A stretch of DNA of 64,000 nucleotides from Amoebophrya sp. A120 (GCA_905178155.1 CAJINV010000012.1:926004-990003); one strand, 5' to 3'. Shown: positions 3,526 to 49,235, numbered from the stretch's first letter. The notes: a model not told the origin generated them from the sequence alone. Made by a program: numbers and translations.

Positions 3526-6500
3526 CTACAAGAAATTCCGTGCGTGTACTTTTTGTGGCTTTGAACGAACTGCATTGTTCTTGATGCACGCCAGTAAGCT
3601 ATCTTGATCTTGCTCCTCTTCTCCGATTTCTTGATCTTGAACGCCATCATGCGTTCCACTACTTTCTCGCTCCAATCCTCGTGTTCGCCCACTTCTGCCT
3701 TCTTCCCTCACCCCAGCTCCCCCGTCCGCCACACGGCCAAAAGTGCTGGCCGTTCCCATCGTCATCCCAATCGCCGGTAAAATCATCCCGAGACCCATCC
3801 CACTCGTGGCTAATGGGTGGATGTTCTGGTACCGGTCGTGGGCGAGCAAGTCGCTCGCCGCGCAGTTCAAGTGCTCGTACGCCCTACTGCCGCCGGACTG
3901 CACGCGGGAGATCTGCGCCGCTTGCTCGATCAGCATATGGGACTCTCAAGCGTTACATTCTCAACTGTTACGTGATTTGTCATGCAAATTTACCACCAAG
4001 ATCGCCGCGATTAAGCTGCTTCGCATGGCAAATCTTCGAAAGGCTAAACAGCATCAAATCTGTGCCAAATCTGTAATGCATAAGGCGCAATCTTCCCCCT
4101 TTCGCTTATTTTACCGCTCTTGCATTACAAATTCATGTAACAGTTGAGAATGTAACACTTGCAAACGCCATACAGCATCCGGGTGTCGTGCACTTTCGCG
4201 TCCATGGTGGTCGCGTCGGAGATCAGAGACTGGAACCACGCTAAAATCGAGGACACCATGAAGGAAAGCCCCGAGGTCGCCTCCGCATTGATGTTGCAAA
4301 TCGCCCGGTTTACCAGCTGCACGGTGTCCACGTCGAGAGCGACTTTGGAGGAGGATTCCGCTTTTTTCAAGTGTTCTAGCGCGTGTTTTAGGTGGAATAT
4401 GGGAGTGTCAGGATTGAAATCAACAATAAAGTTGAAATAGTATGGCTTGGGCAAAACGTTTATTTCGAGAAAGTTCAAAAATTTTTGTATGCATATTCTG
4501 CATGTAGTTAGTGTACGCATTGATTATTAATAATGGAGGATTAACTTGCATGATTGGTTGATTAGCATGACAGAAATGATAGGATAACTAATCTGATATA
4601 GCTAGTTAACCATAAGCTATGTAGCATTGTGGATTCGTGTGGGAACGGTCGCCAAACTCGAGCGGACTCCTCCTCCTCCTCATCGCCAGTTCGGATAGCT
4701 GTTTCTGCGGTTTCTCCATCCCAAGCCACCAAATGAGAGGCAACTGAAGGCACGACGTGCATGAACAGAGCGACCTTGTGCGAATGTGAACGTCCATGCT
4801 GTGCCTGTGAGTAGAGTTTTGAAATAAGATGTTGCGTAGCATGTTCCTGATAGAACAGAATCAATCTAGAAAACATATTGAGAAACAGAAAGAACAAATG
4901 ACGTAAGCTCTAACGTGAGAAAGAGATGTTTTTTTTTCCAGAGAAAGCGCGAGGGCTCACCGATAATTTGTTGCTTTCCCGGGTACAATGCACGAAAGAA
5001 AGAGCGTAGTTGTGATCAGATATCTTCTTGTCATCTTTTCATCTTTCGTCTTTGTTTTTGCTGGTTCAAATGCGTCTTTCCAAAACACAACCGTAGGGCG
5101 AATGATTAAGACGACAACACAGACTAATAAACGAGTGCTACCACAAAATGCGGCTGGTAGCGACGGGTCTCTTATGGCTCGGAGGGCCTACCTCTCCAAT
5201 GACTCCGTGCACGACTGTCGACTTGGTTTCCCTGGGGACCACTGCGACGTGTTCGGTGAACAGCATGGTCGTTGCCGCGTCCGGTAACGGGAAAGACGAC
5301 CCCAATGGTTTCGAGGACCGGTTCCGTAACTCCCTCCGCAACCTGGACCAGGGCGCGTTGCAGATGCGGACTCGTTTGATGCAGGAGCGGTTGGAGATGC
5401 TCGAAGCCATCCAGAATGGCAGTGTCATTCTATGAAAAGCAAACCTCTCTCTGATCATCCTACGTGTAGTTCTTTTGTCATGCTGGGGATGTTGAGTTTG
5501 TGTCTTGCAAGAACATCAAAAGGGCATGACGAGAGAGGTTTTTCCATAGCATAACTCTTGAACGACTTGCCCAACGCCCCCCTCGAACGCGGCATTGGCA
5601 GTACTTCGAGATCTACTCCTTCGAATACATTCCTGCTTTTTGTTTGCTCTGTAGGATGTTACTTGAACTGCAGCATTGATCTATATTTGCATGACAAGTC
5701 TGTATGTGCATTCGATTCAGCACTGTGCGTGTCCCTCAGTGTTGCAGTTCTTATATACATCCCACAACGCAAACAAAAACAGGCTGGCACCAGATTGGGG
5801 TTTCTGAGTGGTGTCGTCTCCTCAGCTGCATCGGTGGAATTCGTCTGTCTGTCTTACAAGCCCGTATTGTGGATGTCTCCCAAATTGAGTGGTTGTTCGA
5901 ACAGTTGGGTCTGTCCTTTCAGTGGCGGGTATAATTCTAACGCTGGTTTTTTGTCATGCAGAAAGGACGTTTTGATCATGCGGATACAGTGCTTTCCATT
6001 CTACCCACACATACACATTTGCACCAGCAAGAGGCACAGTCTTTGCGTTGAGTACGGGCTTGTCAGTACTAATCCATACAAAAATGACAAACAGATTCCC
6101 CGCGTCGATCGCCACCGTTCTCTGCGTATTTGCGCCCAGTTCTTGATCAACGAGCGCTCCCGCCAGGAGTGGCCCCGCCTGATTCAGATGTTGCCCTCCA
6201 AGCAGCAGCTCGACCAGAAGAAGTTGATGTCCATGCTCCCGCAGATGTTCGGTCCGCAGCCCCTCGCCCTCGGAAACGGTGCCTCTTCCAGCAGTTCCTC
6301 CGCGATTCCGATGGGGTATGCGCCCGCCACTCCGCATTCGCCGACGATGAGCCAGGTATCGATGTTTTCATATGATGAGAGTGATGTTTTTTCGTGTGTG
6401 AGACGACGTAATCTTTCCAATATTCGAAAACAGCAAAACTTCGCGCCGCAGGACTACTCGACGCAGGTCCCCACTGGTTCCGGCTCGCACGCGCAGTCCA

Positions 6501-9500
6501 TGTGCGAGCAGTTCATCTTGAGCATGCAGTCGAACGGGAACACGCAACCCGTGACGCAGCCGAACATGAACGGCCCCATCATCGCTCCGCCGCCCCCGGC
6601 TCCCACTTACACGTCCTCATCGTCGCCCCCGCCGACGATCTTTGACACCATGCCCCCCCAGGTACCGCCGCCTGGTACGACATGGGAGGTCGACGACGAA
6701 GGTGACACTGACGTCTACCAGGCCTCTGCCATCGCGGGTCACGGATTGGGCGTGCCCACGACCACCACGTCCTCCACCACCGACTTTTTCTCCCAGTTCT
6801 CTTCGGTGCAGGTCGTGCGCATGGAGTACACCCCGGCGGCCATTGCCGCGGAGCAGGAGGATGCGACCGCGGAGGATTCCGCGCCGAGTGATCAGGTGCG
6901 AATAGATGTTTCTTTGTATGGCAGTCGGTTATCCGCGTTGGTATGCTTCTGTAATGCGAAAGCCATGCTTTACCACCGGCGCATGATCATGTTGCCCGTG
7001 AGCGCCGTTTTTGGTTGAGCTTAATCTTAATGAGCCTGTACATGTATTCGCACAGGAACAAGGACTCATGATCGAGGACCCGGACTACTACGCCGAATTC
7101 GCGGAGGAGGACATCGCGAAGGCCAAGAAGATCCGGCGGGTCGAGGATGAGATCGCGGCCAAGGCGCAAGCCAAGTCCAAATCGAAGGCGAAGCCCAAGG
7201 CCAAGCCGATCCCGCCGAAGAAGCAGGTGTTCGCACCGAAGAAGATGCCCCGCTAGATGTGAGGACCTGTTTTTACGTTTTGTAGAAGCAGTCGACTCAG
7301 ATAGTGACTCGCTTTTGGAAATTTACAACAACGATTTACAACACCAAGAACTTCACAGCTTTGAAATTGCTTTACTTTAGTGAAGAGGAAGCGCACTCAC
7401 GAAACACTACTACCATTGATTTATTAGTTGACGCGGCTGTGCGCAAGATTACTACTGTTTCGGTCTCACAGAACTTACACTGCCCTTCGGGGTTTTTGGC
7501 GATACAAAACACCGCCCATACTAAAAACAATTACGAACTTCGACTGAAGAATACAAATTTTATGCAAAATAAATGCTGTCTTCGATGTCTTTCTTCGTGT
7601 TTTATGTAGAGCGACTATCTCGGAGTACTGTTTGACGAGTTTACCTCTAATAGCATGCGCCGTAGTTCTTATTTGTCTTTCGACAGTAAGACACAGAGAT
7701 CTTCCGGCCTCTTAGTGCCAATTTCCATTGTCAGCGATACAACGACGAGTCACAGGCTAGCAAGCAATGGAAGAGAAAGCAACACTGCTGATGCTTTTGT
7801 CATAGTACATGAACATACATACATGGGACGAGTGTCATAGAAGTGCAAGCTGTTGACTATGTGCTCCCCCGAGTAAACTTGTAAGTGGACTAAGTGGACA
7901 GAAGCAATGGCAAAAATGAAAAAGCACTGACGTAGAACGAAAGTACCTTTGTGCTCATCTGCTGTTCTGCACGTGATTGAACTGAAAACACAAGTCTACG
8001 CGGAATCGGTGTGGTATTATGTCGCGTCGAAAAAGAAGCACTACTCCGCCCGCAACGTCGGTTTTGATTATTTGAAGCGCGGGTCTCTGGGTGGGTTGTC
8101 GGTTGAATGATTTCTATTTGATGTAGATGCGCGCGCACGAATAGAAGAAGTAGTTGATATCCAAGGGGCGAGTGAAGCGCAAACCTGAGTGACTCCGAAA
8201 TTCCACCTACAGGCTCGCTTCACCTCGTAAGAGAGCTTCACCGTAATAGGAAACTCATGTAAACACCGCACACAGAGAGAAGTTGTAGTAGAGACCGAAC
8301 AGGATGAATCTGAACGGCGACAAGGCCGTCGTGAGCGGCCTTTTGGACCGTAACCAGGTCCAGGAGCGCGTGGAGAACCAGAAGTCGAAGACGAAGCGGT
8401 GGGATCACGTAGATCTCGACGGAGTTACCGGTCTTCCGATTTTCTGTATTCGCGGACTCTACCCGAGCCAGGGTGGAGTTGGTGCTTACCAGCACTCGAT
8501 ACCGTTGCGTCTGCGGCAACACCACCTCGTAGCGGACGCAGAGACGTTCACGCCCAAGGCTACCGCGAAGATGGTGGTATAGTTTGAATATCGCGTCTTG
8601 GGTCGTTGTCATGCAGCTATTGCGATGAAGATCATGACGCTCTACTTCATGTTGTGACTGCAATGGTAACCCGTTCTCCAAAAACAGACACACCTCCTTT
8701 ACTACCGCAAGATGGGTATGCACAACGCCGAGTGGACTCAGCTTATTCACGGGTGCGATTTCCGCCACATCATCGCGAATCTTCAGCACGGGAACATGGA
8801 GGACAAAGTGGAGGAGCTGCAGAACTGGTCGAAAAGCAAGCTCTTCAAGTACCGCATGGCAAACCTGGTGGAGAACAAGAAAAAAGAGAAGGTAATACAC
8901 GGTGGAAGTGCTTCACTTAGTTGCTCTTGTAGCGACAGCACTATCATGCAGGAGTAGATCACTACTCCGTCCGATTTAAACACAGCGTGCATTTTACCAC
9001 AATGACATCTTCAATAAAAACAAACTTTTAATGCCAGAAACTCTTCTTGATCGAGCATGGCGAATTCTGCGTCGCGGAGCGTATGCGATTCCGGAAACGG
9101 ACTGGAGCGCATAAGGACATCACCGCATTTACGGGCTGTGATATGAAGCCGCACGGACGCGGCCGGTATTTCCTCCACGATTTCGCCGCCCAACAGAAAA
9201 CGAAATGCTGCGGCACATTCGTATTAATTTTGTTTCATGTGACCACGTGCTCTTCTCATGCAGGCCTGGTTCCTGATGTCATGTGTCGAGTCTTCTTCTC
9301 CAAAAAACTTTCTCAGGTGCAATACACCGACATTGCGGAAGTTGCACCGCTGGCGCACGACGACGCCATCCGCCAGAAAGCGCTTCCACTGCGGAGGTGC
9401 AACACGGACTTGACGAACCCCTCGATTGAGCACGACGCTTCCGCACTGTCGGCTTTGAGTTTTCTCATGCACCTGTGCGAACTTTACGGTCAGGATGCTA

Positions 9501-12500
9501 CTCAGAAGATGTACACTCCGGCCGATACGCACTGGACGGACGTGGCGCTGGATCACTGGGGCGACGGCGACCTACAGCGGAATAAAATCCACATCTTCCC
9601 CATCATGGCATGTGACCAGGGCAGCCCGGAGGTGCGGTGCGCGCAAATCATCTTCACCATGCTGCAAGGCCACTACACCTTCGGACCCGCGCATTTTAGT
9701 AGTAATAGGGTGAAGAACTGCTGTCCCGAGGCGCGGGTGATTGCTGCCATGATCCGCAAGATGGAGCGTGGTCCATTTGGGACCTGCGAAAATCAGGGGA
9801 AGCTGAAAGGCGCTCTCGCATTTGCGCAGCAAGAATCAGTGCATCTCAAGGAGGACGCGAAAAAGCGACCACACGCTGATCAGCTGGTCGATGCGATGGA
9901 CGCGGCGGATCTGGAAGAGGCGCTGAAGATGATCAGTATTTTTTGCTGCTGCTTTCCAATGATGATCCTTCTAGACCTGCTGCGGAATCTCGTTACTTTG
10001 TGTCTAGTTTTCATCCCCCTCGTCAGGTGCCCCGGTTTAGTCCGCAATAATCTCACCATACCATCGCGCTTCATCCCCCTGGTGATCCCCATCGAGATCC
10101 CCATCAAGATCCCAACTTTTTATGCCCCCCCCCGGGACCCCTCGCGATCCCCCTTGAGTTCTGAATAGAATTTCTTCAACGTGTGGCTTTTCTGCAGCAA
10201 GTCGTCATGTCAGAATGTGCTTAATTCTCAGCCCGGTCGTAATTCTCGTTTGTCGTTGAAGCGGCGTTTTTATTTCCAACATATGAACATCAGATGTCTC
10301 CGGCTTTCATGGGACCGAATGCCGGTGGCGCCGCTTGATGATCACGATTGTATGATATGGAAAAGCGCTTTCCTCGTGGTTCAAGCAAACGAAAATGTAA
10401 TGCGTCAACACTGCAAATTTTATCAAGTTTTGTCATGCGGGGAAAGATCTGTTTTTCCATTTCATAAAGGCTGATGATGTTGAGCAAGAAGCAGCGGGCT
10501 CCGATGAAGTACTTGACGAAGTTTTTGTCTGACACCGAATACCACGATCCGAAGAAAATCTCCAATGAGGAGAAAAAGCGCATCGCGGCTAGCCGCTCGG
10601 GAGTCGCCTCGTATCAACCGAAGGAGGGAGCTATCGATATTGACGATAAGGATGAGGACGCGGAGGACAAGGACTCCGGCTGCCCGGCACAGTACAAGGG
10701 AACCGCAAAACCACTGCACGACAAGTTGTCCAAGATGGAGTTGTGCAAGATGCGGTGCGGATACGACCTCTGCAAGCCCGCCTGGGACTACTTCAACTGG
10801 TTGCGGATGTTTCATCAAAACAGCGCGAAGAACGGCTTGCGGATTTCCGATCCGATCTTTCAGAACTTGTCCAAAATGTTCGTCGGGTGGAACTGCGATT
10901 TCTTCGACAAAGACCACTACTCTCCAGTCGAATTCAATACACTGCAGGCCGTGTACCGCAGCAGAACCTGGCGTGTCCAGTTCTACGAAACAATCAAAAC
11001 GCTCCGGAAGTCGAAGTTGCACCGTGAGCGTGGCTTCCCGGTGATCAACAGAATCATCCTCAAATGGTACGAGGAAAACATGGACTTGCAGTTCGGCGTC
11101 TGGGAGCAGATGGCCAACAAAAAAATGACCATCCAGCTCGCCGACATGGAGCGGGTTTTCGAAGCGGCTTCGTTTCCGATCTCGGCTTCCGCGAAAACGG
11201 CGATGCAGGCGTGGCACCAAAACAAGTGCAATCTGGTCGAGGATTTCGCTTTCGAAAGTAACGCCCCGAAGAGTGCGATGGAAGAGGATGCGGAACAGCA
11301 GTTCAAAATGACGCACTACATGAAAACGATGGCGGACCCGGGGGAGAACTGTATGTGGCGCCGACAGTGCCAGCGGGCGATTGCCATCCAGCACCACGGT
11401 CATTTTTTACCGCCGTTGCGGCTCAAGCAGGCCGGCACAATCAACGATCTACCAGCGGAGGACTACGCGAAGATCTTCTGCATCTCCCGCAACCTGCATG
11501 GCGGTAACGCCCCCGGAAACAATTGCAACGAGGTGCATGTCAACAACACCCGCCAGGAGAAGGCTACCCATGCTGGTACGGAGGATAAATTCCACACCAA
11601 GCGGCTCACCGAGATGCTCCTCCAGCTGGAAACGTTGTACAAAAACCGCAGGTCGCTGCAGTTTCCCGCTACGCAGATCATCCAGCCCATGTACAACAAG
11701 GACTTGGGAGTCAAGGGCGCCACGACGTTGGGCTACCGCGGCGGGGAGGTGGAGGCGATCATCGACGGGGGGATTTCTTCCCAACACGAGCGAAAAGCGC
11801 ACGAGCGGTGCTCCGTGACTTTCTGGCATTCCGCCGACATGGCGCAGAAACTGCAGGAAGAGGGTTGTTTAATCGTCCAGCACATGGTGACGCACAGGCA
11901 CGGCGCTGTTACGGGGCAACACCTCGGAAAGGCCGTCGGTTTTTACCTCATCATCTGCCCGCACACGGAGAAACTGAAGGCCTTCGCTCCGGATGAGTTG
12001 CACGAGTCCCGGTTTTTCTGCGCCGCGCCGTCGCAGCTGCGGTGGTTAGACGCGAAATTCTTGGCGCCGGACATGTGTGAGTGCCCGCTCTATTTCGAGA
12101 TTCCGATGGGACCATGGATCGAGCCAGTCGACATCGTTCTGGAGAAGTTCCTCGACCTCACCGTCGACGAACAGTACGCGCTGACGAAGGACACCGTCAA
12201 AGAATTCCCCAAGTTGTCGAAGTTTTACTGGTCGCGGATGCCGGAGACGGCGCGGAAGAAGGCGTATCGCTACGCCTACGAAGGCGGGTTTGCGCAGCGA
12301 CACATGGACGAGATCGAGAAGAGGTGCAAACCGAAACTGATCATATTCGGCAAGGACGGCGACGAGTTCCGGCGGGAGCAGCAGCAGAACAAGGTGGACG
12401 AGTTAGCCGAACAAGCTGCCAATGATAAGCGGGTGCACCAGGAACAGGTGAATAAGCGGGACTCGATGACACCAATGCAAAAATCACTACTATCTCATCT

Positions 12501-15500
12501 CGTTTTGTATTGCGCAAAATCACGCATGACAAAATGCATGACAAGAAAAGTTCTTCACTCAAAGCTCCGTGCTGTTTTTGCATGACAAATATGAAAATGC
12601 AAAACGAGAAGAGATGGTAGTCGTTTTTGATGTGATAGCCCGACGGCAAGACAAACAATCACACCCGGCTGCCGGCGCAGAAGGTCATCAAGTACTACGG
12701 CAAGGTCGAGGGAAAGACGAAATTGTTAGCGGAGGTCCGGCCAACGCGCTCGTCTGCCCACATGGACGACATTTTGCGGCTGCGGTGGCCGACGGATCAC
12801 GTCGTGAGATCCGCCATCAAGTACGCAACCGCGCCCAGCAAGCCCGACGCCATGGCGAACGCCGAGAGCCTGCTGTTGCCCAAAGTGTTGACGTCGTACG
12901 GCTTGCTGAGGTCGCAGGTAACAGTCGAAGTCGATAAGTGGGAGGAAGTGGACTATGACGTGTATGGTTTTGATGATTACGGATACCGAATCCGCGAACC
13001 GCCGGCAAGCAGCAGCTCCAAACCGACCGGGTTGAGCGACAACGTGAACAACCGGAACAAGCGGAATTCTTTGGGTGGTGATGCTGAGTTTCTGGATGAT
13101 GGTGATACTAAGAAGAAGCAGAGAAAAGGTTAGGTCGTCAGCATATGTCTACTTGATTCAGTATTGGTCTCCATGTTTCTTTACACAATTACTACAGTGA
13201 AAAACATATTTATACACGCGAGTAAGTACGATGAAACTATATCAGTGATCATGAAGAGACAGACCCAACAGCCACTACCTTTCCCTCCTTTTTCAGGAGG
13301 AATTTTCATCAGGATTCACGATAATACTCATTGCTGCACTCCAGCAATGGGAAAATTTAGAAATCGCCTATCTGTGAATAGGTTAACAAAATTCAAACTG
13401 CAGCTGTGCAGTTTATAAAAATTTGATTACACAAAAGATGAAAAGTATGGAAGTGCTGTCGAAGAACGACAGCAATGCAAATTATTAAAAAATACAATTG
13501 AAAAGATAGTGAAATAGTAAAGAAAAGAAGCACTATCAGACATTACCCGAAGGCGCGCCACATCTATCCGAAAAGTGCAAAACTTTTCGTGATGAAAAAT
13601 TAATTTTTGTATACCTTTCGATTTATTTTCCCACCGGTACTACTTGTAATAAGTCACACCATCAAAACTGCTCTCATTCTGACCGGGCCCTTGCTCTGGA
13701 GCTGGAGCTTGTGCTGTTAGTGTTGTCTATTTTCCGCTTTTTCGGTGCAGATTTTGCCAGTTCCGGGTCGGTTTGTTGTGTTGCTGTCGTTTGCGAAGTG
13801 TCGGCTGTGTCGGTTGTCGCGTTCAGGACCAATAGGATTTGGTCAGCAATCCGATCGGCAGGTACGAACCAACTCTCGAGCCACGTCCTGCGCGGCTTTT
13901 TAATCTCGGTCATCAGCGCCGGGTAGGCTGCCAAGGTAGTTGTCCCGAACTCCCTGTGGATGGATAGAAGTACTCGGTTGAAAACGAAACCCAATAGATG
14001 GTCGCGCTTGCACATGAATAAGCTGCACATTACTGCTACGCATCACAAGTTTCAACATTGTTGTAGTTTTTCTGTCATTTCTACTTCTGCTCTACTGTCC
14101 TGGCACGATGTAGAACCACGCCCACCCTAGAAGCACGCTATTTATACTTATCCGGTTCGTAGATAAATCCATGCTTCCGCAGCTCTTCCCACGGGATGAG
14201 TGCGCTGCTCTTCAAGGGCTTCCCGTAAAGGTGCCTCTCGTCGAAGGATCGCGCGTGCAACAGCAAGAAGTCCGCGTCATCAACGCGGTAACATTCTCCG
14301 TTGGCTCTGTGTTATGTGTTGTTGCTGTATTCAAAGCGAATAGCGAGGCCGGCTATGGGAGCGGTACACAATGGCGTCGGGCAGTTGAAAAAGTACAAAA
14401 ATGCCTTGTCATCTTGCAGCGCAAGGCGATCGGCTCTCCCTTCCGGTCTGTGCGCCACACCAAGTTCTTCTCCTGCACGCGATAGAGAGTTCCATCAGGA
14501 TCGCCTCTCTTGACGATGCACCGATCAAACCCGCCGTATTCTCGTTCGGGGGTAACGTACTGCAATCCACTACCGCGGAGCTGGTGCTCAAAGTAATCAC
14601 GAGAATCCGCCTCCCTCAAGGTAGCCGCACTGTAAACGTGCGCCCTTGGGTCAAAGGGAGCCAACAAATGCGGACGTGATTGGAGCAGGTTCTGGAGGTG
14701 TGCCACGAGGTTGGCTGGCGGTATGTTTTCGCTTGGGTCGTTCAGTGAGTAGCCGTCGTAATCCCGTTGTCTATGGACAATGTGAACGAAAACGTCGGCC
14801 GCGTCGTCGCTCGTGATACCAATAAGAGTGAAGTTGTGCCAGGCACTCTTGTGCCCGTTTAGTGCGAGTCTGATCTTTCGCTCCCAGGCGTCGGCTCTGG
14901 AACTGCCACCCTTGATCTGCACCGTGGCCCAGAGCTCCACCGTGTTCAAATTTTGCGTAAAAGTGTCGTCCTTATTTGCCACTAGGACGTCACTACTTAA
15001 CTCGTGGGTTCGTCGGACGATGAAATGCTGCTCCAATAAGCGAATAAATTCACTAACGCTTTTGTCCTCCGCGTTCTTTGGAATGCTGCCCATCAAACAG
15101 CTGCACGACGTTCAGATGCAAACAAAATCAACAACGTACAGCCTCAAGCGTGACCTAAATCAGAGTGAGAGAAAGTATGTGGCTCAGAGTAGTCCTCCGG
15201 GTGGGGTGTTTCTAAATCAGCCTACTATGATCACCAAATCTCAGGGCCCTGCGATGTTCATTCCCATCACGTAGTAAACGCCTACCCTTATTGGTATAGT
15301 ATCAGACCACTCCCTCTACGTTCTTGCGCATCACATTCATTGCAATACTAGACCGATGGGCCATTTCTGTGTTGTTGTTGACATTGATTCATCTGATAGG
15401 ACCGATCCAGTAGTGTCGCGTAGAGCTAGCATCAAAAACATGGCCTCCGTCGCCGATCTTCGACTTGTCTCGCCGCCGTTCCGACACGAATCCACAATGC

Positions 15501-16015
15501 TACATAGCTTATGGTTAACTAGCTAACTCAGATAAGACTATTATAGTTCAAGCATAATCAAGCTGCATGACCAATCAGTTTGGTAGCTAAACATGCACTG
15601 GAGTACTACCATAGAACATAATATGAAACATGCATACAAAAATTTTTGAACTTTCTCGAAATAAACGTTTTGCCCAAGCCATAAATAGTAACTTGTAATG
15701 CATAAAATCGCTACCAGCTGGAAGCCCACTTTCCCAGCGGTGCATGACAAATCTCGGCACCGCCTAAATCCAGTTTGTCATGCTGTTTAGGCACAGAAGG
15801 CGTCTTTTGTCGTGCTACTTTAGCAGCTCTATCGTAGACCCCAAACAGGGTGGCAGTAGGCCTCACTTGCCATCTCTGCAAGAGAGGCACTTCGTGCCTT
15901 ACAGTTTATGCATGAGAAATTATTTCAACTCTGTCGATTTCAATCCTGACCCTTCCATATGGGACTGGAGAAAAATCGTGTCCGGCTGTCCGCATTCCAC
16001 GACTTTCACCGGCAT
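3526..16015 (-). CDS. Hypothetical host protein (~226 aa) whose first intron contains the 11.2-kb transposon
   Basis: Exons 16015-15960, 4392-4173 and 3930-3526 total 681 nt and join in frame: MPVKVVECGQPDTIFLQSH|LKHALEHLKKAESS...HDTRML|IEQAAQISRVQ. The C-terminal frame is less certain. Confidence 0.7.
3936..4172. mobile_element. Introner, TIR family III (237 bp)
   Basis: TIRs tatgggactctcaagcgttacattctcaactgttac / gtaacagttgagaatgtaacacttgcaaacgccata. TSD CAGCA at 3931-3935 and 4173-4177. Removal restores the ORF. Confidence 0.92.
5148..7256 (+). CDS. Transposon accessory gene A: Pro/Ser-rich protein with a Lys-rich C-terminus, function unknown
   Basis: Coding-like exons at about 5148-5418, 6094-6355, 6434-6895 and 7056-7256, bounded by G(T/C)..AG sites (ccag|gtatc, aacag|caaaac, tcag|gtgcg, cacag|gaacaa). 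How exon 1 links to the rest is uncertain. Confidence 0.6.
8304..13133 (+). CDS. Candidate divergent DDE transposase, multi-exon, more than 1200 aa
   Basis: Phase-0 GT-AG introns 8577-8711 and 8892-9037 join the first ORFs. Further exons at about 9038-9930, 10470-12447 and 12639-13133; exons between 9930 and 10470 are unresolved. Motifs CNTDLT (D 9407), IMACDQGS (D 9614), FGPAH (H 9692) and NCNEVHVNNTR (E 11530) resemble the D...D..xxH...E layout of P/hAT-like transposases. The function is inferred. Confidence 0.6.
13674..15096 (-). CDS. Tandem PD-(D/E)XK-like nuclease with a C-terminal NLS-like motif (5' end may extend upstream)
   Basis: Two D...QxK motifs (SDVLVAN...VQIK; FDRCIV...RVQEK). 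GC-AG intron 14404-14307 and GT-AG intron 14147-13954 join in frame to CYRVDDADFLLLH...LIPWEELRKHG and EFGTTTLAAYP...PKKRKI. Confidence 0.62.
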
Positions 16016-16559: not shown

Positions 16560-17812
16560 TTAATCTTTCGCGAATACCCATCTGGCGCTTCCAAACTCGA
16601 CAATCGTCTTTCCGGAAAACGTGTGTCCCTCCGCCGCGAGTTTCTTTTTCTGAAGTAGAGCTGCCGACATGGTGCCTTCGCCCCCTCCTCCTGCGTTCTC
16701 ATCCCCGCCGGCAGACTTTGCTTTGCTTGAGCTTGGCTTGTCCTTTGCCGCCTTGATGTCTTTGCTGGTTTTATTGTTTTTGTCATTGGACTTCCGAACC
16801 GATTTTTCTACCTTCATCTTCTTGTTCTCAGCGGACGAAGTTGCTATCGCCTTGCCCTTCACCTTCTCCGCCTCCCTGACCTTCTCATCCACCACCGCGC
16901 CGCCCTTCAATGAGATTCCGCCGCTGCTGTTCACACACCGCCACCAGGGCACGTCGTTCACATCGCAGTCCCGCATGTATGAAATGCAAAAGTGTCTGGG
17001 TCTGGAAGAGTGTGAACTTGTCATGCAGGTTTTCCATGACTCTTGAGGTCTGGAATGCGGCACCTAGCACGACAGAGTCTGCGACGTCTCTTTCATGCCT
17101 ATCCTGCATGAGAAACTCCCTCCCAACTTGGTCGAAAGTGGACAGCTACTTTTGGCACTCATGCAACACAGACTTTTGCATGGTTCGGATTTAGTATGAC
17201 AAGTTGCAATCTTCCAGACCCAGACATTTTTGCAATCCATAGCATGGCGAATCCGACGTGTCTCGCGTGGTTGGGGAGTTTGAGCGCGACGGCAACGTCC
17301 TTGTAGGTGGTAACTTTTCCAGCGGGGACTATGACTTGCTCAAGCGTTACAATCTCAAACGTTACAATAGAATCTGGAATTTGTGTTGCATGATGAGCAT
17401 GACAGACTCGCACAGCGCTCCACCTTTTGCAATACAAATTTCGCCAGATTGTAGTGGTTTTTGGGGCTCCGGAACTTGTCATGCGCAATCCTATGAGGGT
17501 TGGCTAGATCCTGCACTCTTGCATCACAGATTTCCATATTATATTGCAAACGTTTGAGATTGTAACACCTGAGCGGGTTATAGGGACCTGCTTCACTTTC
17601 TCGTACACGAGTTGAGGGAAGAGCTTCCTGGGAGGGGAGGAGCTTCTATTCTGCATCTTCCCGTTCTGCTGTTTATTTTGGTCGTGACGCTCTTGATTTA
17701 TTTTGGGAGTACTAGTGGTGGTGGTGGTTTTCCGCTTTTCAGTAGTGTTTTTCGAAGAAGACGAGGAGGAGCTGGGCGCTGAGGTCGAAATGGACGAGGA
17801 GAATATTGCCAT
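16560..17812 (-). CDS. Alkyltransferase-like (ATL/Atl1, MGMT family) DNA-damage-binding protein (~241 aa)
   Basis: Exons 17812-17583, 17324-17242 and 16972-16560 (726 nt) give VYEKVKQVPAGKVTTYKDVA...ARHVGFAM...DVPWWRCVNSSGGIS...KKLAAEG. Trp occupies the MGMT catalytic Cys position (PWxR), as in ATL proteins. Confidence 0.88.
16978..17241. mobile_element. Introner, TIR family I (264 bp)
   Basis: TIRs tatgaaatgcaaaagtgtctgggtctggaag / cttccagacccagacatttttgcaatccata. TSD GCATG. Removal restores HVGFAM|RDCD. Confidence 0.95.
17330..17582. mobile_element. Introner, TIR family II (253 bp)
   Basis: TIRs tatgacttgctcaagcgttacaatctcaaacg / cgtttgagattgtaacacctgagcgggttata. TSD GGGAC. Removal restores KQVP|AGKV. 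Confidence 0.95.
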
Positions 17813-25042: not shown

Positions 25043-28000
25043 CTATCGAAACGCCCCACCACTGCCATTCCCTCCACCTCCGACTCCACGACGTCCGAAA
25101 TCTGTTCGCCTTACCACGCGCTCAAAATTATTTAAGTTAAAATACATCCGACGCGGGTGCCAGGAATTTGTGTTGCTATGGTAGGGATTGTTGTGTACAA
25201 CTGAGTTGCTAGTTCTATTGTGGTCTATCTGAGATGAGGAACTATTGTTCGGCGGTCCAGGACCACTTATGTTATACCCACCTGCCCCCGTGCTATCTTC
25301 TATCTTCATCTTCTTACTCAGGTAATATTCCTCCGCGTGCCTGTATCCGTACTGTCTTCTCAACAGCGACAAACAGCAGCCGCACAGCAGTCTTTTCACC
25401 ACGAAGTTCAGTAGGAGTTTCCGGATGAGCAATTGGTACAAGGTCAGAACCAAAGGTTGGAAGAAGCTTTCCCAAAAGGGGATGACTGTCGTGAAAACTT
25501 TTTCCAAAAAGTTTTTCTTCCGCCACCTTTTTGCACTCGCCGCCGCGCTGATCTTCCGCGACAACCCCGTTCCGCTTCCGTGCTGAAAGATCAAGCCAAC
25601 GTCCTCCTCGTCGTCGTCCGTTTGGTTCAAAACAAAGTTTTCGATCATATCAATTGTAAAAGTGTCTGGGTCTGGAATGTTGCCAAGTTTATCATGCATA
25701 TTTTGCATGACCCAGGATGTCTGTAATGCACGGCCTAGCATCACAGATTTTTAGAGGGCTTCCTGATGCCTACTCCGCATGCCAAATGCCCTCCCCGCGT
25801 AGCACAAACTAGACTCCTCTTGCTGGTCATGCAATACGGATTTTTTTAGAATCCAAACGCAGCATCACAAGTTCCAACTTTCCAGACCCAGACATTTTTG
25901 CAATCCATAGATCACAACTTTCAACACTTCTTGCAGAATTTCCTCCACCCCCAGCCAGTACCAAATGCGGCTGAAGCAGGATTTCTTCCGGTTTTTGTAC
26001 TATGACCTGCTCAAACGTTACAATCCCAAGCGTTACAATAGAATTTGGAAATCTGTGATGCAAGAAGTGCATGATCTAGCCAAGTTTCATAGGATTACGC
26101 ATGACAAGTTCCGGAGTCCCAAACCGCACTACAGTCTGCCAGTGCCAGTATTTGTGCTGCATAAAGTGGAATGGTCTGCGAGTCTGTCATGCTCATTATG
26201 CGAGACAAGTCCCAGATTCTATTGTAACGTTTGATATTGTAACGTTTGAGCAGGTCATATGTACGCCAGGTGTTTCCTGTGCTCGAAGTTGTTCTGGAAG
26301 TTATCTTCCGGAAACCTCGGCTTTTGTACTAGATTCTGGTCCACCCGGCTGATTTCCTTAAATTTCGCGTGAAACAGCACCGCCGGGACCTTGAACGTAC
26401 CGTCGGGGAAGCACCACTTCTTGAACTGTTTCTTTTTGAACTCCAGCTCCTTCGCGCGGAGTTCGATTTCCTTCTTCAGTGAAGTGCGGCGCTCCGATAT
26501 CCACAGTAAATTTCCCGTACACGTACACATGCGGTCTCTGCATGAAAGAACTTGGCTTCCATCCTAGTCTAGCATGACAAGTTTTCGGCTTTAAATTGGT
26601 GAAATTTGTGATGCATCTTGTACATGTACGGAAAATTTGTATTGCGTATCCGACTCCAGCATGACGGAAACGTAATTGATCGTGCGGAGTTCCTCTTGCT
26701 TCAGATTCAACTCCGACTGCAGCTGTGTCAATTCCTGCACCGTGATAAACCGATTCTCGATCTGGTCGCTGCCGATCATGGTGTTTGCTGATGTCGTTCT
26801 TGATGTGCTATCAGAAGTTGTACTCGCCGGTCCTAAAAGTTGTGATCCGCCCTTAATATTTTGCTGCTGCTGCTGTTTCAGCGATTGCTCCTCTTGTTCC
26901 GCGGCTGTCAGCTGCACCGTTTTCACGGCCGGGCACACGTAGCTGCACACTTCCGTGATCGTTTTCCCGCTGTACTGATCGACCGCTATCAAATGCAAAA
27001 ATGTCTGGGTCTGGGAGGTTGCCGGGTTTGTCATGCATATTTTGCATGACCAATCGCGCCTGTAGTGCATGACTTAGCATCACAGATTTTTGGAAGGCTT
27101 TCTGATGCCTATTCCGCATGACAAATGTCCTCTCCGCGTAGCACAATCCGGGCTCCTCTTGTTGGTCCTGCAATACAGATTTTTTTAGAGTCCAAAGACA
27201 GCATGACAAGTTTGGATCCTTCCAGACCCAGACATATTTGCAATGCATAACCGCTAGAACCGAACAGTTGATCAGAAACAGCTCCCGCAGTCCGAGGTTC
27301 TTTTCGTGCAGGGGAGAGGCTTCGTTGATGATGTGCTTGATCGTCAGAATGCCGCCGTTCGGGCTGTGCACCGTGAGCATCGTATGGAAGTGTCAGGTTT
27401 GAAATCGTCAAAGTTGAAATAGTTTGTCATGCATAAAGCGGAGACCAGTTGGAAGACCAATTTCCAAGCGGCGCATGACAAATTTTCTGAGCACCGAAAT
27501 CCAATCTGTCATGCTGTTTGGGCACAGAAGAGTGCTTTTGTCATGCTCCTTTAGCAGCTCTATCCCAAACCCTAAATAGGCTCGAAATCTGCCTCACTTG
27601 CAATCCCTGCAAGACAGTCTTTTCGTGCTTTGCATTTTATGCATCACAGATTCTTTCAACTTTGTCGATTTCAATCCTGACACATCCATACATCGGGAGA
27701 AGTTGGTATTGCGCCGGGTGGTATCAAATGCAAAAGTGTCTGGGTCTGGAATAGTGGAACTTGTGATGCGTGTCTTGCATTCCTGGAAAATCTGTGTTGC
27801 ATGAGCAGCAAAAGAGGAGCTTGCTTTGTCATGCAAAAACGCAATTTGTAATGCGTGGTAGGCATCAGCAGGCCTCTCTAAAACTTGTCATGCCTGGCTG
27901 CCATTAATACAAGCGCTTCAATCATGCTCAATTCAGCATCACAGATTTCCAGACCCAGACATATTTGCAGTGCATAGGTGGTCCTGTAAAAGTTGGTCGA

Positions 28001-31000
28001 TCTCGGTGTTGGATGGTTTATTGCCTGTCGTGTCTAGTACCTGCTCGCCACCGCTATTTGTAGGCTTTGTACTAGATGAGGAGCCACTGCTGCTCAAACT
28101 GGTGCTGTTCGACAAAACTTGTGCCTGCAACTCGTACATCAGCCCCGACCGCGTGACCAACTGCAGCACGATCTTCGGCTGCACCAAAATCACGTTCTCC
28201 CGGATCACCATCAAGCGCAACACAAGCTCGGGGTACTCCAGCCAGTCGCTGTCGGGGTAGTAGAATTTTTCATCTGGAACAGGATCGGCTCCTCCGGGAG
28301 GTGGTGGTGGTTGTAATCCTGCAGCCGAGAATGGAACACTTGTGTTCCCTGCTCCTCTCGGCGAAGTTGTACTTCTATCTGCAGGCGCCGCTAAGAGTCC
28401 TCCCCCTGGCCCCATGCGCGGGCTGAGCAGTTGCTGCAGCTGGGGAACGCCTTTTGTTTGCATGGCCGGTCGTGCCCCCGCAATTGTAGAAGTTTGCGCT
28501 CCTGTACTAGCTGCAGGAGGTGCTCGCTCCGCCGTTGGGAACGCCGGGGGTGCGACGGCAAGAACCACTGCATTTCCTTTGGCTGGAGGTAGTTGGAGCA
28601 GGTGTTTTTCTTTTTTATTCATTTTACTGGCACCAGCTGCAGATGTTGATGATGATCGGAAAGCGGAAGCATCTTCGTCGCCCGCTGGTGGCACCATTTG
28701 CGCCTTGTGCTCGCCTTCGTTATACAACACCAGCTGTGGTCCACCTTTTGAAGGAGACGAAGAGGTGGTTATTGAGGTTTTCGACTTCTTCACCTTAGCC
28801 GGCCCTCCGCCCGCCAAACTTTTCGTCGTGTTGTTTGGAACATCCGCAGCTCTGTTTTCCACTACTATCTTTGCAGATTTCTTGCTAGAAGTACCGCCAC
28901 TCGCCGGAGAACTTGTAGTTGCCACAGCAGGAGCGGTCAAGATATTACCGTCTTGGTCTGGAGAAACACTTCTGCTGGTTTTCTTCGAAGATGCTCCACC
29001 TGGATTCCTTATCGCCGCAGAGGTACTAGGGCCTCCTGCTACTAGGGACGAGCTGCTATTTCGTAGTTGCGATGAATCTGCTCTATTCGAAGAAGTCACC
29101 CTCCTGTCACTGCTGCTCGCAGTCGCGCCGGAGGTTCTATTCTTGCTACCGACAGTCTTATCGTCGTTCGCTGCAGCAGCTCCCGAAGCCGGCAGCGAAG
29201 AAGCTGATCGGCTTCTTTTCGATTTCAACGCTTTTGTTTCTGCTCCTGTGCTGTTGGACGTGGTTGGTCCAGCAGGTTCTACTTTTAGACTGGAGGCTCT
29301 ACCAGCATTGCCTATGGTGTTACCCGCAACGGAGGCCGAGCCGGGGGCGTGGGCAGCACTGCCCTCAGGATGCGGAGCAGCTTCCTTATACTCCAAATCG
29401 CTCCTTGCAGGGGATGTGGAGACAAACTTGTCCTCTACTTCCGAAGACAGCGCCCTCGCCTTCGCTGGCGCTGCGCCTGCAGGTCCTCGCGGCATGTCAG
29501 GATTTTTATCGCCACCTGCACCAGCCCCCACCAACGGCAATTTCGTGCCGTTTGTGTCTTTCTCCTCATCTTCATTCCCACCCGGTAGATGAAGTGTTAA
29601 ACTCGTCCCATTCTGTAGCGGCCCCCCGGATGCTGGCGAGCCACTGCTGCTGCTGCTCTCCTGACCAGGAACTACACCGCCTGCCCCACCACTCGTCCCA
29701 CCCGCCGCGTTGCTATTTGCTTTCGCTGACAACAGCATGCGGTTAAGAAACGCCAGGGCGCTGCTCGTCACAATAATTGGCTCGGGCTCGTTTACCGGCA
29801 TCAAAATGCGGTTTTTGATTTTCCCTTTCGGCCCCTTCAAAGGTTTGATATTCACATTCTGCTGGCTTGAATGATCTTGATTGCCGCTTGCTGGTGGAGA
29901 AGCTTTCATACTCGAAGACGCTAGTAGAGATCCTGGCCGGGGACTTCTATTTGCAGTTGTTAAGGACGAGCCACCAGCGTTTTTACTGTTGGATCGGATC
30001 CGCACCATCTCTGTCACACTCTTGCTGGTGGTCGTGTTAATATTCGCGACTACATTTGGCGTTGGTCCTGGAGGTTGTACTGAGTTGTCAAATATCGTCG
30101 GTTTCAGCACTCCGTCAGACACGCAGCAGGCGTGGGAGAAGCATATGGGGTTCTCAAACGTTACATCCTCAGCTGTTACATGAAATTTGTAATGCAAGAA
30201 TGGCAAAAAGTGAAAGGGAAAACGTTGTGCCTTTTGCATTACAGGTTTGGAGCAGATTGTAATGCTATCTAGCGCGTCGGGAAGTTGTCATGCGGAGAAG
30301 GCTTGATCGCGGTAAAAGTGATAGTGTTTTTGCATGACAAATCATGTAACAGTTGAGAATGTAACATTTTGAGAACGCCATAAAGCAAAGTTGCTGACTC
30401 GGCTGCAGAAACCTCGCGACGATAACGCCGGTGAGCAGCAAGAGAAAGATAATCTGCAGATAGTGCTGTAGGGACAAAACGGTGAGCATGACGAAGGTAA
30501 GGAAGTTGTCCCGGCCTCGCTCCCCATCGGGGTGAATCAATTCGTCCGCTTCGGTGGTCTGGAAGAAGCTCAGACTGTTGGTGGCCTTCAAGCTCAGCAT
30601 GAAGAAGTGCCGGAAGGTCCGCTCGCTCGGGGGGGAAGGAGACGACCACAGGGGGGATGTGGAAGTAGATGTTGTGCCCGCGGTGGTCAAGGACGTGGTC
30701 GTGGAGGACGCGTGGTCAGCAGGATCACCATCTCGTCCCGCCCTGAGCGCCAGAACATCTTCCAACAGGTCGTACATAAGCCAGTAGAGCAAGCAGGACA
30801 AGCCATAATTGACCACCGCAAACACGGTGACAAACCCGATTTCAAAAGCCAACACGTAGGTAATCAGTTGCTTCATCGAGATGCGGTTGACACAAAAGTC
30901 CCAAAGGAAATCCCCGACGGCCTTCGTGGACGTCGACAAGGGTCCGGCCAGCATCTGCCCCCGCCCGGCACCACCGCCCTGATGGAACAGCCCGCCGTCG

Positions 31001-32796: not shown

Positions 32797-33883
32797 GAGG
32801 TTACCAGATGAGGACGAGACTGTACGCACGACCGACTTGGACTGGATCTACTTATTATCGCACGACTGATGAAGAGAAAGAGCCTTGGCGCCAGCTGTTG
32901 TCTGTCTAATTTTTGGTGTACGAAATATTCACAGTATTTCGTGTCTTGATGATGATAGTACACATCCGGTCATCGAGTTTTGACTTTGTACTGCATTTTC
33001 TTTGACGACGAATCCGGAAAAGCCGATCATGGAGAATATGACCAACAAACCCTGAACAACTACGTCGATGGAAAATGCAACCAAGTGTTTGGATGCGGAG
33101 TGGGAACGGACGATCCTTCCTTGTGGCTGAACCACCAGCAAAGTTGCGTCGCGCTACATCCGCCCCTCTTCTTGCTTCTTCTTCTAAGTACCAGAAGCAG
33201 AATCTTTATTCTTCACTGTGAAACAAAACTCTTTCTCTCAATCTTCATGGCAACTCGAACTCTGGTTTTTATATATGACCTTCACGCCTGCCTCGCGCTG
33301 CGGCACTCCTTGTTGTGATCGGTCCTTACTTGGTGCCTCATCAACTCACAATCAAAATTATCTGCACTCTTCAGAAAAAGGTCGATAAAAAAGGGGAGAA
33401 AAACGATACGTATCTCAAGCTGAGTCGGTGGCTGTGCACTGAAATAAGTTTGTTTGGAAAGCAATCAATGCGAACTGGAAAATAGAAAAGAAAAAATGAT
33501 GTTAGGCAATCGAATGTAAACTTGTAAATTAAAAAAAAATATACATGCCTATCAGGAAAGTACAGTCTCAGTCGGTTGAGCTTGTATGCCCTGCTCGTGC
33601 TTTTGCTTCATGTTGACTTAGACTGTACTATCTCAGAGCCCCACCGGCCCTGCAGTGCGTTGTCCGAGGTCAGTTTTCCTCTGGAGTGTGCCCTTCCTTC
33701 AACAGCAGCGCTTTCAGTGAGTCGTTTGATAAAGATGATCACTACGGAGCGGTAATTTTCCATGCCTTCATCTACAGCTGATTGGGAAGTTGTAGAAAAG
33801 CGCTGCAGTAAATTTGCACATAACGTTATTGAAATAGACCACAGCTGCTCGTATTGTTATTTTCAAGGTCGTGGGCGAATTAA

Positions 33884-36800
33884 TTAGCAGCACTTGGAGT
33901 CCGTGTGTTTTTGTGGCTGCCTTTGTTGAGCCGAGGCGCTGGGCAGATTTTTTTGACGCGCAGCGGTGGCCGGATCAACAACAGATGCCGACTGCAGCTG
34001 CGACTGACTACTAGTACCCGCGCCGGCGCCAACTGCTCCACCCGGTCTTAACGCCGCGGGCGCTGCCCCTCCTGGTCCCAGCGTTCTGGCCGCGGGCGCG
34101 GCTGTACCTCCTGCCCCCCCTGCCCCGCCCGGTGTTGCGACCGCGCGCGTCGTTGCAGCTGCCGCTACTGGTGTTGTTCTTGTTGGTAAACCGCCCGAGC
34201 TGACTTTACCGGCCTCTCCGGGCACCTGTGGTGAAGCGACTGTCCGTGTCGGTGTCCTCCCTGTTTCATCGCCTCCTGCTAAGGGTGCTCCTACCGGGTG
34301 TGCTGCTCGGGGTGCGATTTCTGAAGATGCCGCAGGCGCAGCAGCGGCTACTGACACTGTAGGATGAACTGGTGACGCCTTAGGAGGGGGTGATGGACCC
34401 CCCAGACCACGCAGGTCGGGTACCGTGCGGCGATTACGTTCTGGCGCCGGCGGCACCCGACGACTGCTTGCTTGTTCTGGTTGCCGTACCGCCCCACTGG
34501 CGAGTTGTGCCCCGGTATGGGCAGCTTCGCCACCTTCAGGAGCGGTTTTTGTGGTGCTGCCACCCGCCTCGTGTTGCAGTGGATTTGGTTGCGGTTCTTC
34601 TTTGGCAGCATCGTTCATGCTGACTTTGCTTAAAAATTCCCTGAGTTGCTGATTGCAGAGCTGGAGCTTGTCAAGGTCTTTCTCCGTATTTCCGTTATTC
34701 GCTTCCGCTTTGAACTGCTCTAAAGCAGCACGTGCCAGCTGCGACATCTTCTTTCGACGCGGCCTCGGCTCCTCTTGATTCTCCTTGTTTGGCGTGCTGG
34801 ACCCGCCTGTATACAAAGGAAAACCCCTACCACTATCGGAGCGGTTCAACTGATAGCTAGACTAACAGTCGGAGGACGACACCCTTACTTCACTTTACAA
34901 CAATCTTCAATGCGAGGAGAGCGTAGATATTTGCAAAAATGAACTTTACCTGAGTGGATGCGAAAGTCGACGTGGAAGTCCGTACATACATTTAGAAATG
35001 AACTACCGAGACCGTTTCAGCAGTGGGGGTTTCCGTTTTCATAGTCTGTGATGTCCTCGGTCTTGAAAACTTGGGTAATCCCTTGGAACATCACGTCCAC
35101 TGATATATCTACTTTTTCGTACATCTCGGCTGGAAGCCCCAGGTCCGCATGTAGTCTCTTGAGCGTCTCTTCATCATCATGATCCCTGATCAGACGTTCA
35201 ATTACACCCTCGACCACAGCAAACAGCGCAAGCACTTGCGGACCGGGGGCAGACAACGGCACCGGGCATGTTGCTGGTGGTTTTCCTGTTTCTACTTGTC
35301 CGGATATTTTGCAATTGTGATCGGGACTTAGCCAGTTACCGAGGACTTCATTCACAAAAGGCCGTCCGATGTCGTCATTCTGGAGGGTCGAAGTGATAGA
35401 ACTGTGATTGTTATCAAGATTCCGCTTGTTTTGACCTTGATGGCCGCCTTCAACCTCGACCTTGATGGCTTCCACGATCTGCCGACCCACGCCAATGAAA
35501 AGGAGACTAAAATTTTCATGTTCTTGCTTCAACAATTCGCTTTGGAGCTGCGACATCAACGTTTCCGGCGACAGTCCTCGATTGATCGCGTCATCGTGGA
35601 CCACGCTTGCCCAGAGAAAAATCCGCTCCGTGTCCTTTTGCCGGAGAAAGGTGAACAACTCGGGGAAATAGCCCTGGAGAGTATTTTCAGCAGTTGACAT
35701 GCAGCATACAACCCGCTGCATTTGCCGATTCAGTTCCCTAAGTTTCATGTTCGCGAGGATCTCGATGGACCCCTGATAATCTTTGAACTTCTGCTGCCCT
35801 TCTGGAGTTGTACTATCTTCCGACCCATATTGCTCGAGAAGTCTAGCGAGGACATACTTATCCATGGGGCTATGATTGCGTTTCTTGCTGCTGCTGTGCT
35901 GCGACGCGTGCTTGCTATGCTGTAGAAAGGCTTGCTCTTGCAGCGGATTGCCATCGTGTGCGTTGTAGTACTCGTGGTCTTGTCTTTGCTTGCGGTCTAG
36001 ACCTTCCGCTTCTCGGAGGGCACTTCTGCTTTCATCCCTTGTTCCCCCCGACTGCTCCTCGGCCGGCGCAAATGTTTTCATTGGACCAGACGACCTTGCA
36101 CCGGGCGCCGAGGACGCTTGTTCCGTTTCTCCTGGAAATCCATTTATGCAATGCAAAACTATGTATCGTAATCGTATCTATTTGATATTATAAGCAAATT
36201 TTCGGCAGAACAAAAAGAAAATAAAAATCGCATAATGCTGCATTTTATTTTGCCATCATACTCATAGGAACAAGTAGCTTGTCCATGCAATCTTCATGCT
36301 GCTGCAACTACAAGTACGAGTACGACACTAACACAACTTTTACACAGGATACTATTTTCCTCGCGCTGAAACAACATGTCGTGCCCTATACAATCATGAC
36401 CGTCCGCGCAATCCAGACTCGACACTGCATCCACCCCGACAGGGTTGGCTGATGCGGCTACGGCGGCTGCGGTATTTGTCGTCGCCGACTCGAACCCCGT
36501 GCGGAGATGAAGTAGGTGTAGGTGTTGAGATAAATTCATTATCAAGTGCAAACATGTAGTCTGGGTCTGCGCGAAAGTTCTGACTATATGCTAGCTGCGT
36601 CTCCGTGAGAAGCGGTGGACGTCATCAATACAATATTACCCAGCGAGGGACGCGAAACTTTGACCTTATTTGGAAGAAGGGCTGTATACAGCGAGCAGCT
36701 CGCATGAGAGATGGCATATATAAATGACAAACGGCGTTGTCATCGGGAGGTGCTCACTCGCTCCATGCATCGCAGATTCTCGCTTCCCTCGAAAAATAGT

Positions 36801-48372: not shown

Positions 48373-48552
48373 TGACGTGCGCGCTTCTCAAGGTCAGCGG
48401 TAAAAGCCTCCCACATACTGTAGTGCAATTCCAGAAGGTAAGTGCTTCTGCAGAAGTGGTTAGACCACTTCTGCACCCCCAGTGACGTTTCACCGCCCGT
48501 TTTAGCAGTGCCCGGCCACCAGGGGGGAGTTTGCCCGGCCACCAGGGGGGAG
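48373..48552. mobile_element. 180-bp insertion with a 15-bp TSD (retroposon/SINE-like)
   Basis: Flanked by ttgtaaaaaaaagaa at 48358-48372 and 48553-48567. Absent at the paralogous sites near 33522 and 39872. It ends in two copies of gcccggccaccaggggggagtt. Confidence 0.7.
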
Positions 48553-49235
48553 TTGTAAAAAAAAGAAATATACATAATCAGATAGGTATAGCCTAAGTCG
48601 GTTGAGTTTGCATGCCCTGCTTTTGCTTCTTGCAATGACTTAGACTAACTATTGCAAAGTTACGATGTGAAGTGGAAGTTTCGCACTGTAGCAAGCAACC
48701 TGTCAAGAATTTCCTTGTGATTGCATAGAGCATTCTGAGCCTCCAGATTGCTTCGTGTGGACGCGAAAGGTTTAAGAACTGATACTACTACTACTACTTA
48801 AGAACTGATACGGAATAAATAAACAAGTAGCCAACGCATGGTGAGAGCCTTCTCTGCCCTGTTTGCACTTGATCGTGGCTGGTTACGCGGCACAAAGCTG
48901 CAAAGCGTAGCAAATATGAAAAATGATTGATGGATAAGTAAATTGGAGGTTTATTTCGGCGCGAGTATGATTTTTCGTTTTATTCTCGCGCTGCTTTGTC
49001 CGAGGTCAATTTTCCTCTGGAGTGTGCTCTTCCTTCAACAGCAGCGCTTTCGAAAAGTCGTTTGAGTAAGATGATCACTATGGAGCGGTGATTTTCCATG
49101 TCATCTACAGCTGGTTCGGAAGAAAAGTGCTTCTACTGAATTCGGTAGTAAGTTCGTACACGACGGTATCGAAGCAGATCACAGCTCCCCATATTATATT
49201 ATATATATATTTATATAAGTATATAGGACACTGTA

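Follow-up and report, generated by a model that had tools for sequence, protein, structure and literature searches.

A 64,000-nucleotide window of the Amoebophrya sp. A120 genome (GCA_905178155.1 CAJINV010000012.1:926004-990003) carries an 11,243-bp element at 4441-15683 with TAT…ATA termini, together with a set of short introners, elements of the same end geometry that act as introns. The large element is a real, recent and intact terminal inverted repeat (TIR) transposon. Its middle gene, termed gene B, likely encodes a deeply divergent hAT-like transposase, and the short TAT…ATA introners are likely mobilised by members of the same enzyme family as well; this combined reading is considered probable. 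The supply of an introner-moving enzyme by the element family as a whole, through several paralogues, is favoured to the same degree. That the copy at 4441-15683 itself drives the major introner families is less likely than family-wide supply and is doubtful on its own.

Both ends of the element are precisely defined. The TIRs are 54 bp long and perfect (left, 4441-4494, + strand, starting with TAT; right, 15630-15683, − strand) and are flanked by a perfect 5-bp target-site duplication (TSD), AATAG, at 4436-4440 and 15684-15688. The TIR, TSD and termini that a sequence-only reading had reported for this 11.2-kb segment are therefore exact at these coordinates. The perfect state of the TIR and TSD implies a recent jump. 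The tip reads TATGG..CCATA, with an end pattern of TAT + 9 + AAAA. A second inverted block (4588-4657, + strand, pairing with 15467-15536, − strand; 89% alike) is located at an equal offset from each end, which indicates that the element ends are two-part. An 8-bp TSD with shifted element ends was also considered, and the sequence does not fit it.

The junctions were compared with the contig set of one run (X1; n=264,029, with some contigs dropped from comparisons by a filter). Contigs covering 4132-4470 and 15654-15783 span both junctions; each reaches just 30 letters into the element, one fewer than the threshold of the comparison tool. These contigs are consistent with the assembly at 4440 and 15684, where a mis-assembly had been named by the sequence-only reading as fatal to its claim, and do not constitute independent proof, because the overlaps are short and the window may itself derive from X1. 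The interior of the element is represented by a single 10,903-bp contig at depth 42, which matches the flank depth, and the left TIR by one 54-bp contig at depth 84.4, approximately twice that of its neighbours. An assembly artefact at the junctions could draw on the possible shared origin of X1 and on the short element-side overlaps; the spanning of both junctions, and the finding that removal of the element with one TSD rebuilds a full introner family member, render it extremely unlikely.

A short introner at 4398-15959, which measures 314 bp once the insertion is discounted and has the TSD TGGAA/TGGGA, hosts the element; this nesting had been missed in the sequence-only reading. After removal of the element and one TSD, this host introner aligns end to end with two members of the same family, at 27383-27690 and 61172-61484, thereby providing an identifiable empty site. 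Compared with these two members, the host introner exhibits two 3-base extras, one located exactly at the insertion site (around 4398-4440 / 15684-15700), which may reflect a subfamily variant or footprints of excision. The likely host gene (3526-16015, − strand) retains ~226 open codons after the host introner and the neighbouring one are removed with one TSD each, and two of its exons gave no Pfam match. The element would likely survive because its landing site is an existing intron.

Gene B (8304-13133, + strand) is predicted to encode a 1,279-aa hAT-like transposase with no internal stop, which scores 403 bits against the family hidden Markov model (HMM). The gene model comprises seven exons on the + strand (8304-8576, 8688-8891, 9038-9212, 9264-9935, 10294-10336, 10470-12447 and 12639-13133), and the predicted introns consist of four GT-AG, one GC-AG and one GA-AG. 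Four open reading frames (ORFs) in the window matched the family HMM in collinear order, including a 43-bp micro-exon that is weak alone (E 0.28), and the two 5´ exons align with the family N-terminus. A small inverted repeat at 12488-12619 lies within the final intron of gene B; X1 depth rises to 118 in this bin, which indicates that the sequence is repeated elsewhere.

A phmmer search with the 663-residue main exon against 1.84 billion representatives returned 13 hits, 12 of which were kept (18-23% identity). The remaining hit, P0002, was judged spurious and excluded: it is a repetitive plant protein whose match consists of 20 short stretches. Eight of the 12 relatives belong to Amoebophrya AT5.2 and one to A25, and every named one is from Amoebophrya. 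A profile search with the alignment gave two hits, one of them new, which represents a ninth AT5.2 locus. Cluster look-ups recovered two full-length transcript-derived members of the family (P0014/P0015 and P0017) from an Amoebophrya transcriptome, which shows that a relative expresses this family. For the element itself, the 13 partial reads from RNA runs X4-X6 fall on neither the element nor the flanking exons and are hence uninformative on expression; nothing from runs X3 and X7 could be placed. Judged from these comparisons, the gene B family appears lineage-restricted, multi-copy and divergent, and scattered 20-50% paralogues are the pattern expected of a transposase family.

The family data also bear on the possibility that the element is non-autonomous cargo, in which host genes were captured between TIRs and gene B is a host protein or a domesticated transposase. 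The ordinary introns in the element genes and the single copy in X1 (the one contig at depth 42) would suit such cargo. This explanation is very improbable in view of the recent jump implied by the perfect TIR and TSD, the intact predicted catalytic residues, and a family that is multi-copy, divergent and restricted to one lineage.

Candidate catalytic residues of gene B, all encoded on the + strand, were identified in an alignment of the gene B model with 13 relatives, from which P0011, P0012, P0014 and P0018 were omitted as redundant with longer cluster mates. The predicted first catalytic Asp is D207 (9179-9181), conserved in 8/8 rows with a residue and placed in register with Hermes D180 from the range ends of a structural alignment. 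The predicted second catalytic Asp, D335 (9614-9616; 9/9), is part of a DQGSxE motif and follows a strand in the model of a relative. H361 (9692-9694; 8/8), located 26 residues after D335, is likely the xxH histidine that corresponds to Hermes H268, and R452-W453 (10323-10328) on the 43-bp micro-exon is likely the hAT RW pair, with the Trp conserved in 10 of the 11 rows that are not gapped at this column. E731 (11293-11295; 14/14) in an ExxF motif is the predicted catalytic Glu, and the surrounding P-x6-E-x-x-F is reminiscent of the hAT catalytic-Glu motif. Another motif, GNNCNE, was the first candidate for this Glu and was rejected because it is not conserved. The order D, D, H, RW, E in the gene B family is identical to that of Hermes, in which the key residues are D180, D248, H268, R318-W319 and E572 (PMC6027215, PMC5225508). 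D207, D335 and E731 may form an RNase H-like active site, and H361 and R452-W453 would be carried by a long helical insertion, as in Hermes.

The hAT-like reading of these motifs preceded the structural search. The structure of the relative P0014 was predicted from a 16-row alignment (predicted local distance difference test, pLDDT, 72; predicted template modelling score, pTM, 0.67). In the structural search with this model, Hermes (8edg_A) ranked 2 of 48,161 (Z 5.9; root-mean-square deviation 5.3), with 314 residues aligned compared with 168 for the next longest among the matches listed. Hermes was the only transposase in the top 50 structural matches; these 50 included no structure of P, Transib, RAG or IS256, an absence that excludes nothing. 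Residues 1-567 of the model align to residues 171-607 of the Hermes chain. Without gaps, the start of this range would place model D10 opposite Hermes D180; the range stops 38 residues beyond the predicted Glu in the model and 35 beyond the Glu of Hermes. The middling Hermes match carries weight because the alignment is long and agrees with the earlier motif reading. A single-sequence model of 9038-9931 (pLDDT 32) was discarded. Taken with the motifs, the model makes it very probable that the gene B product is a hAT-like transposase.

Several points weigh against this assignment. D661, E668 and E727 are conserved in 14/14 rows, equal to E731, and the choice of E731 among these four acidic columns is a prediction. 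Neither Cys nor Asp is found at −3 from H361, the position at which the hAT CxxH motif was compared. Residues 1-60 of the P0014 model, which hold the first Asp, have a pLDDT of <50, and the model represents a relative and not gene B itself. The Hermes register is known from the range ends only, and a Z of 5.9 falls within the range that the tool terms 'common arrangement'. In the fold comparison suggested by the sequence-only reading, performed here on the P0014 model, Foldseek against PDB and BFVD returned nothing at E<=0.001. The splice sites of gene B, including the GC and GA donors, are likewise predicted. Finally, Pfam detected no transposase family in 11 window ORFs, 12 relatives and 11 further pieces, and neither a BED finger nor a hAT dimerisation domain in the ORFs or relatives.

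Other searches were also negative. Structural comparison over Foldseek's top 1000 gave a best Z of 4.5 and no transposase among the matches listed. No match was obtained with PHROGs (10 proteins) or in word-based protein searches with two single gene B exons; ESM Atlas (2 queries) gave no usable match, and PDB sequence searches gave nothing significant.

Compared with hAT transposons (Hermes, PDB 8edg; hAT5), the element shares the D, D, H, RW, E order, a predicted long helical insertion and the TA ends, and Hermes is its best long structural match. The five key residues D, D, R, W and E are present in order in gene B, the catalytic Glu being a predicted choice. The sequence-only reading had excluded hAT on the basis of TSD length, and this exclusion does not hold: hAT5, hAT6 and hAT7 give TSDs of 5, 6 and 7 bp, respectively (PMC12730594). 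The 5-bp TSD of the element departs from the canonical 8 bp and fits hAT5, which is placed among animal Blackjack-like hATs (PMC12730594). The element nevertheless exhibits marked discrepancies. TATGG fits the hAT TIR consensus (T/C)A(A/G)NG at positions 1, 2 and 5 but not 3, the BED finger and hAT Pfam domains are lacking, and no C/D precedes the His. The D-D and H-W spacings of gene B are 128 and 92 residues compared with 68 and 51 in Hermes. The 1,279-aa product has an extra C-terminal half, and the 11-kb element contains two further genes and combines a 54-bp TIR with a second block. Residues 700-816 of the P0014 model resemble KOW/SH3 barrels (Z about 5; 5.4 best).

These discrepancies could indicate that gene B is the transposase of a separate, unclassified superfamily within the xxH/insertion-domain clade (hAT, MULE, P, Kolobok, Transib). 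The lack of a profile match, the wide spacings, the T at the third TIR base and the KOW/SH3-like part of the C-terminal half all point in this direction, but the RW pair shortly after the His and the position of Hermes as the sole transposase in the top 50 matches favour hAT, and a separate superfamily is quite unlikely. The element likely represents a new, deeply divergent hAT-like lineage rather than an unclassifiable one.

The IS3EU termini are TAYGG..CCRTA (PMC12730594), which TATGG..CCATA of the element fits exactly and better than the hAT consensus; the TSD of IS3EU/GingerRoot is 6 bp compared with 5 bp in the element (PMC10045372, PMC12730594). The TNT..AYA ends of IS481EU also fit the element, and its own TSDs are about 4/15/25 bp (PMC10045372, PMC12730594). 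In gene B, the conserved acidic columns after D335 are located at +5, +73 and beyond +320. Integrase-type cores have a DD(35)E spacing; IS3EU/GingerRoot possess such a core, whereas gene B has no conserved Glu ~35 residues after D335.

Short elements of the same geometry are present across the window. A strict scan identified 16 short TAT…ATA elements, 216-415 bp in length; the 5-bp TSD is perfect in 13 of them and matches at 4/5 positions in the other three. With looser settings the count rose to 21, of which 13 again had a perfect 5-bp TSD, compared with 2-9 hits and no perfect TSD in five shuffled windows. All 13 perfect-TSD elements have TAT…ATA ends, and they carry 12 distinct TSD sequences. 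Among 16 inverted repeat pairs picked irrespective of TSD, 12 have a 5-bp TSD and none has a TSD of 6-11 bp. The geometry described in the sequence-only reading is thus sound; its count of roughly 25 is too high, as ~17 short elements are confirmed, including the host introner. Further partial introner-like ends towards the right end of the window (62253-63450), noted alongside 3936-4172 and 30144-30382, have no clear partner or TSD and may account for the higher count.

That the short elements act like introns, as had been proposed, is supported at 16978-17241. This introner splits the MGMT domain PF01035 (profile positions 13-41 before and 49-80 after), and its removal with one TSD restores the frame. 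The MGMT-like DNA-repair gene (PF01035; 16560-17670) contains two introners within ~90 coding bases. In an open-frame test, other offsets also kept frames open, and 5 bp was not singled out for most short elements. The short elements are similar to the Amoebophrya introners described by Farhat et al. 2021 (PMC7789003), which have inverted repeats of TAT, ~7 variable bases and at least three A, direct repeats of 3-5 nt and a length of ~240 nt. They also agree with the account of Gozashti et al. 2025 (PMC12130899), in which most introners are non-autonomous DNA transposons with TIRs.

The ends of the element and of the introners resemble each other. In a 20-bp comparison, the element end is identical at 15/20 positions to the right end, at 30382, of the short introner 30144-30382, and six more of the 34 introner ends reach 12/20; 1,181 other TAT-starting 20-mers gave a mean of 7.2 and a maximum of 13. 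The end resemblance noted in the sequence-only reading is therefore upheld, and within the window it extends over the outer ~20 bp only. Termini and TSD length are common to the element and the introners, whereas homology to a non-autonomous family was not found over the whole TIR, the best agreement being 15/20 at the tip.

Other observations count against a role of the element family in introner movement. Past ~20 bp, alignment scores against 17 short elements are within the shuffle range for 13 and slightly above it for four. Neither the window nor the X1 contigs yielded a short element with the TIR of the element. The further copies that the sequence-only reading had expected were not found in X1 either: 7 of the 264,029 contigs matched the element end at 80%, and all derive from the 4441-15683 copy. 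AT5.2, which is described as having canonical introns (PMC12005148), holds nine loci of the gene B family. Multiple copies with different TSDs, as expected of class II TIR transposons, were found neither in the X1 nor in the metagenome contigs; an exact 20-nt TIR pattern gave 0 matches in the latter, and no related locus was confirmed in viral, metagenome or prokaryote contigs.

An autonomous hAT-like element that moves only itself would account for such observations. The introners would then be moved by now-absent paralogues or by another enzyme, for example of the integrase-type IS3EU/GingerRoot-like kind, and the common geometry would be ancestral or convergent. The X1 contigs without a short element bearing the TIR and the presence of the gene B family in AT5.2, which has no reported introners, fit this alternative, as do the exact match of TATGG to the IS3EU termini and a published introner family of Amoebophrya that has TIRs and integrase-like ORFs (PMC12130899). 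In contrast, the 6-bp TSD of IS3EU/GingerRoot disagrees with the 5 bp seen in 13/13 perfect TSDs and in the element, and one introner end is identical to the element end at 15/20 positions. A self-restricted mover is thus somewhat unlikely, and a driver role of the element family is plausible. Of the earlier proposal, the intact transposon with introner geometry and the likely DDE transposase stand; the driver role is unproven, with a similarity of ~20 bp and no short element in the window or the X1 contigs that carries the TIR.

Published work provides a mixed background. Some Symbiodinium introner families have been classed as hAT from hAT5-like termini (PMC12130899). No Amoebophrya family was finally classed as hAT among places 1-60 of the 63 'hAT' hits in that source, in which the coding TIR family 38 is integrase-like. 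Farhat et al. 2021 (PMC7789003) reported that one strain had two putative transposases and that the other had none, which was taken to rule out general transposase-mediated mobilisation; this scarcity differs from the intact gene-carrying element with introner-type ends observed here. No description of a hAT DNA transposon in Amoebophrya or of such an element was found in the literature compared, with Roy et al. 2023 (Curr Biol) and Repbase outside this comparison, the former of which may bear on novelty.

In the proposed mechanism, the transposase would bind the TIR together with the subterminal block and cleave at TAT, after which the element ends would be joined to the target 5 bp apart. 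In hAT excision, a hairpin forms on the flanking DNA. The short elements would be clients resembling miniature inverted-repeat transposable elements, recognised through their outer ~20 bp, and would become introns when the element and one TSD are spliced out, which would restore the frame. The many introner end types would probably answer to several paralogous transposases, and the 4441-15683 copy would for this reason be a representative of the supplier family and not the sole driver.

The sequence-only reading had assigned three spliced genes to the element; gene B is solid, whereas genes A and C are open splice models. Gene A (5148-7256, + strand; exons 5148-5423, 6095-6355, 6434-6895 and 7056-7256) is predicted to encode 399 aa, with a low-complexity, Lys-rich end and no Pfam or PHROG match. 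Gene C (13674-15093, − strand) has a 246-codon first ORF and a 3´ exon that ends in a PKKRK-type basic stretch. Its exon models number 725 open ones, the best of about 380 aa, and it has no Pfam, PHROG or PDB sequence match.

Further features were observed in the window. A recurrent motif, TGTCATGC/GCATGACA, is shared by introners on both strands and by 5/6 gene B introns, where its distance from the 3´ end varies; it is possibly a splicing signal. A 734-bp element at 56736-57469 has 59-nt inverted arms (76%) and differs from the TAT families in its TTA-type ends; a flanking TSD was not found. Large duplicated blocks at 33092-40809 and 44873-54592 probably represent a tandem duplication of a multi-exon gene.

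How introners move is an open question, and transposase-driven spread in Amoebophrya was argued against in PMC7789003, in which almost no transposases were found. An intact candidate enzyme, the ends of its own element and short substrates to match now occur together in one window, which makes a mechanism of mass intron gain testable. It is proposed tentatively, and with somewhat more doubt than confidence, that an Amoebophrya-restricted giant hAT-related lineage (1,300-aa transposase, TAT ends, 5-bp TSD, two accessory genes) forms its own group, was missed by transposase profiles and is the source of the enzyme for tens of thousands of non-canonical introner introns. The finding suggests a lineage of transposases that neither Pfam nor PHROG recognises and that would be of interest in other introner-rich protists.

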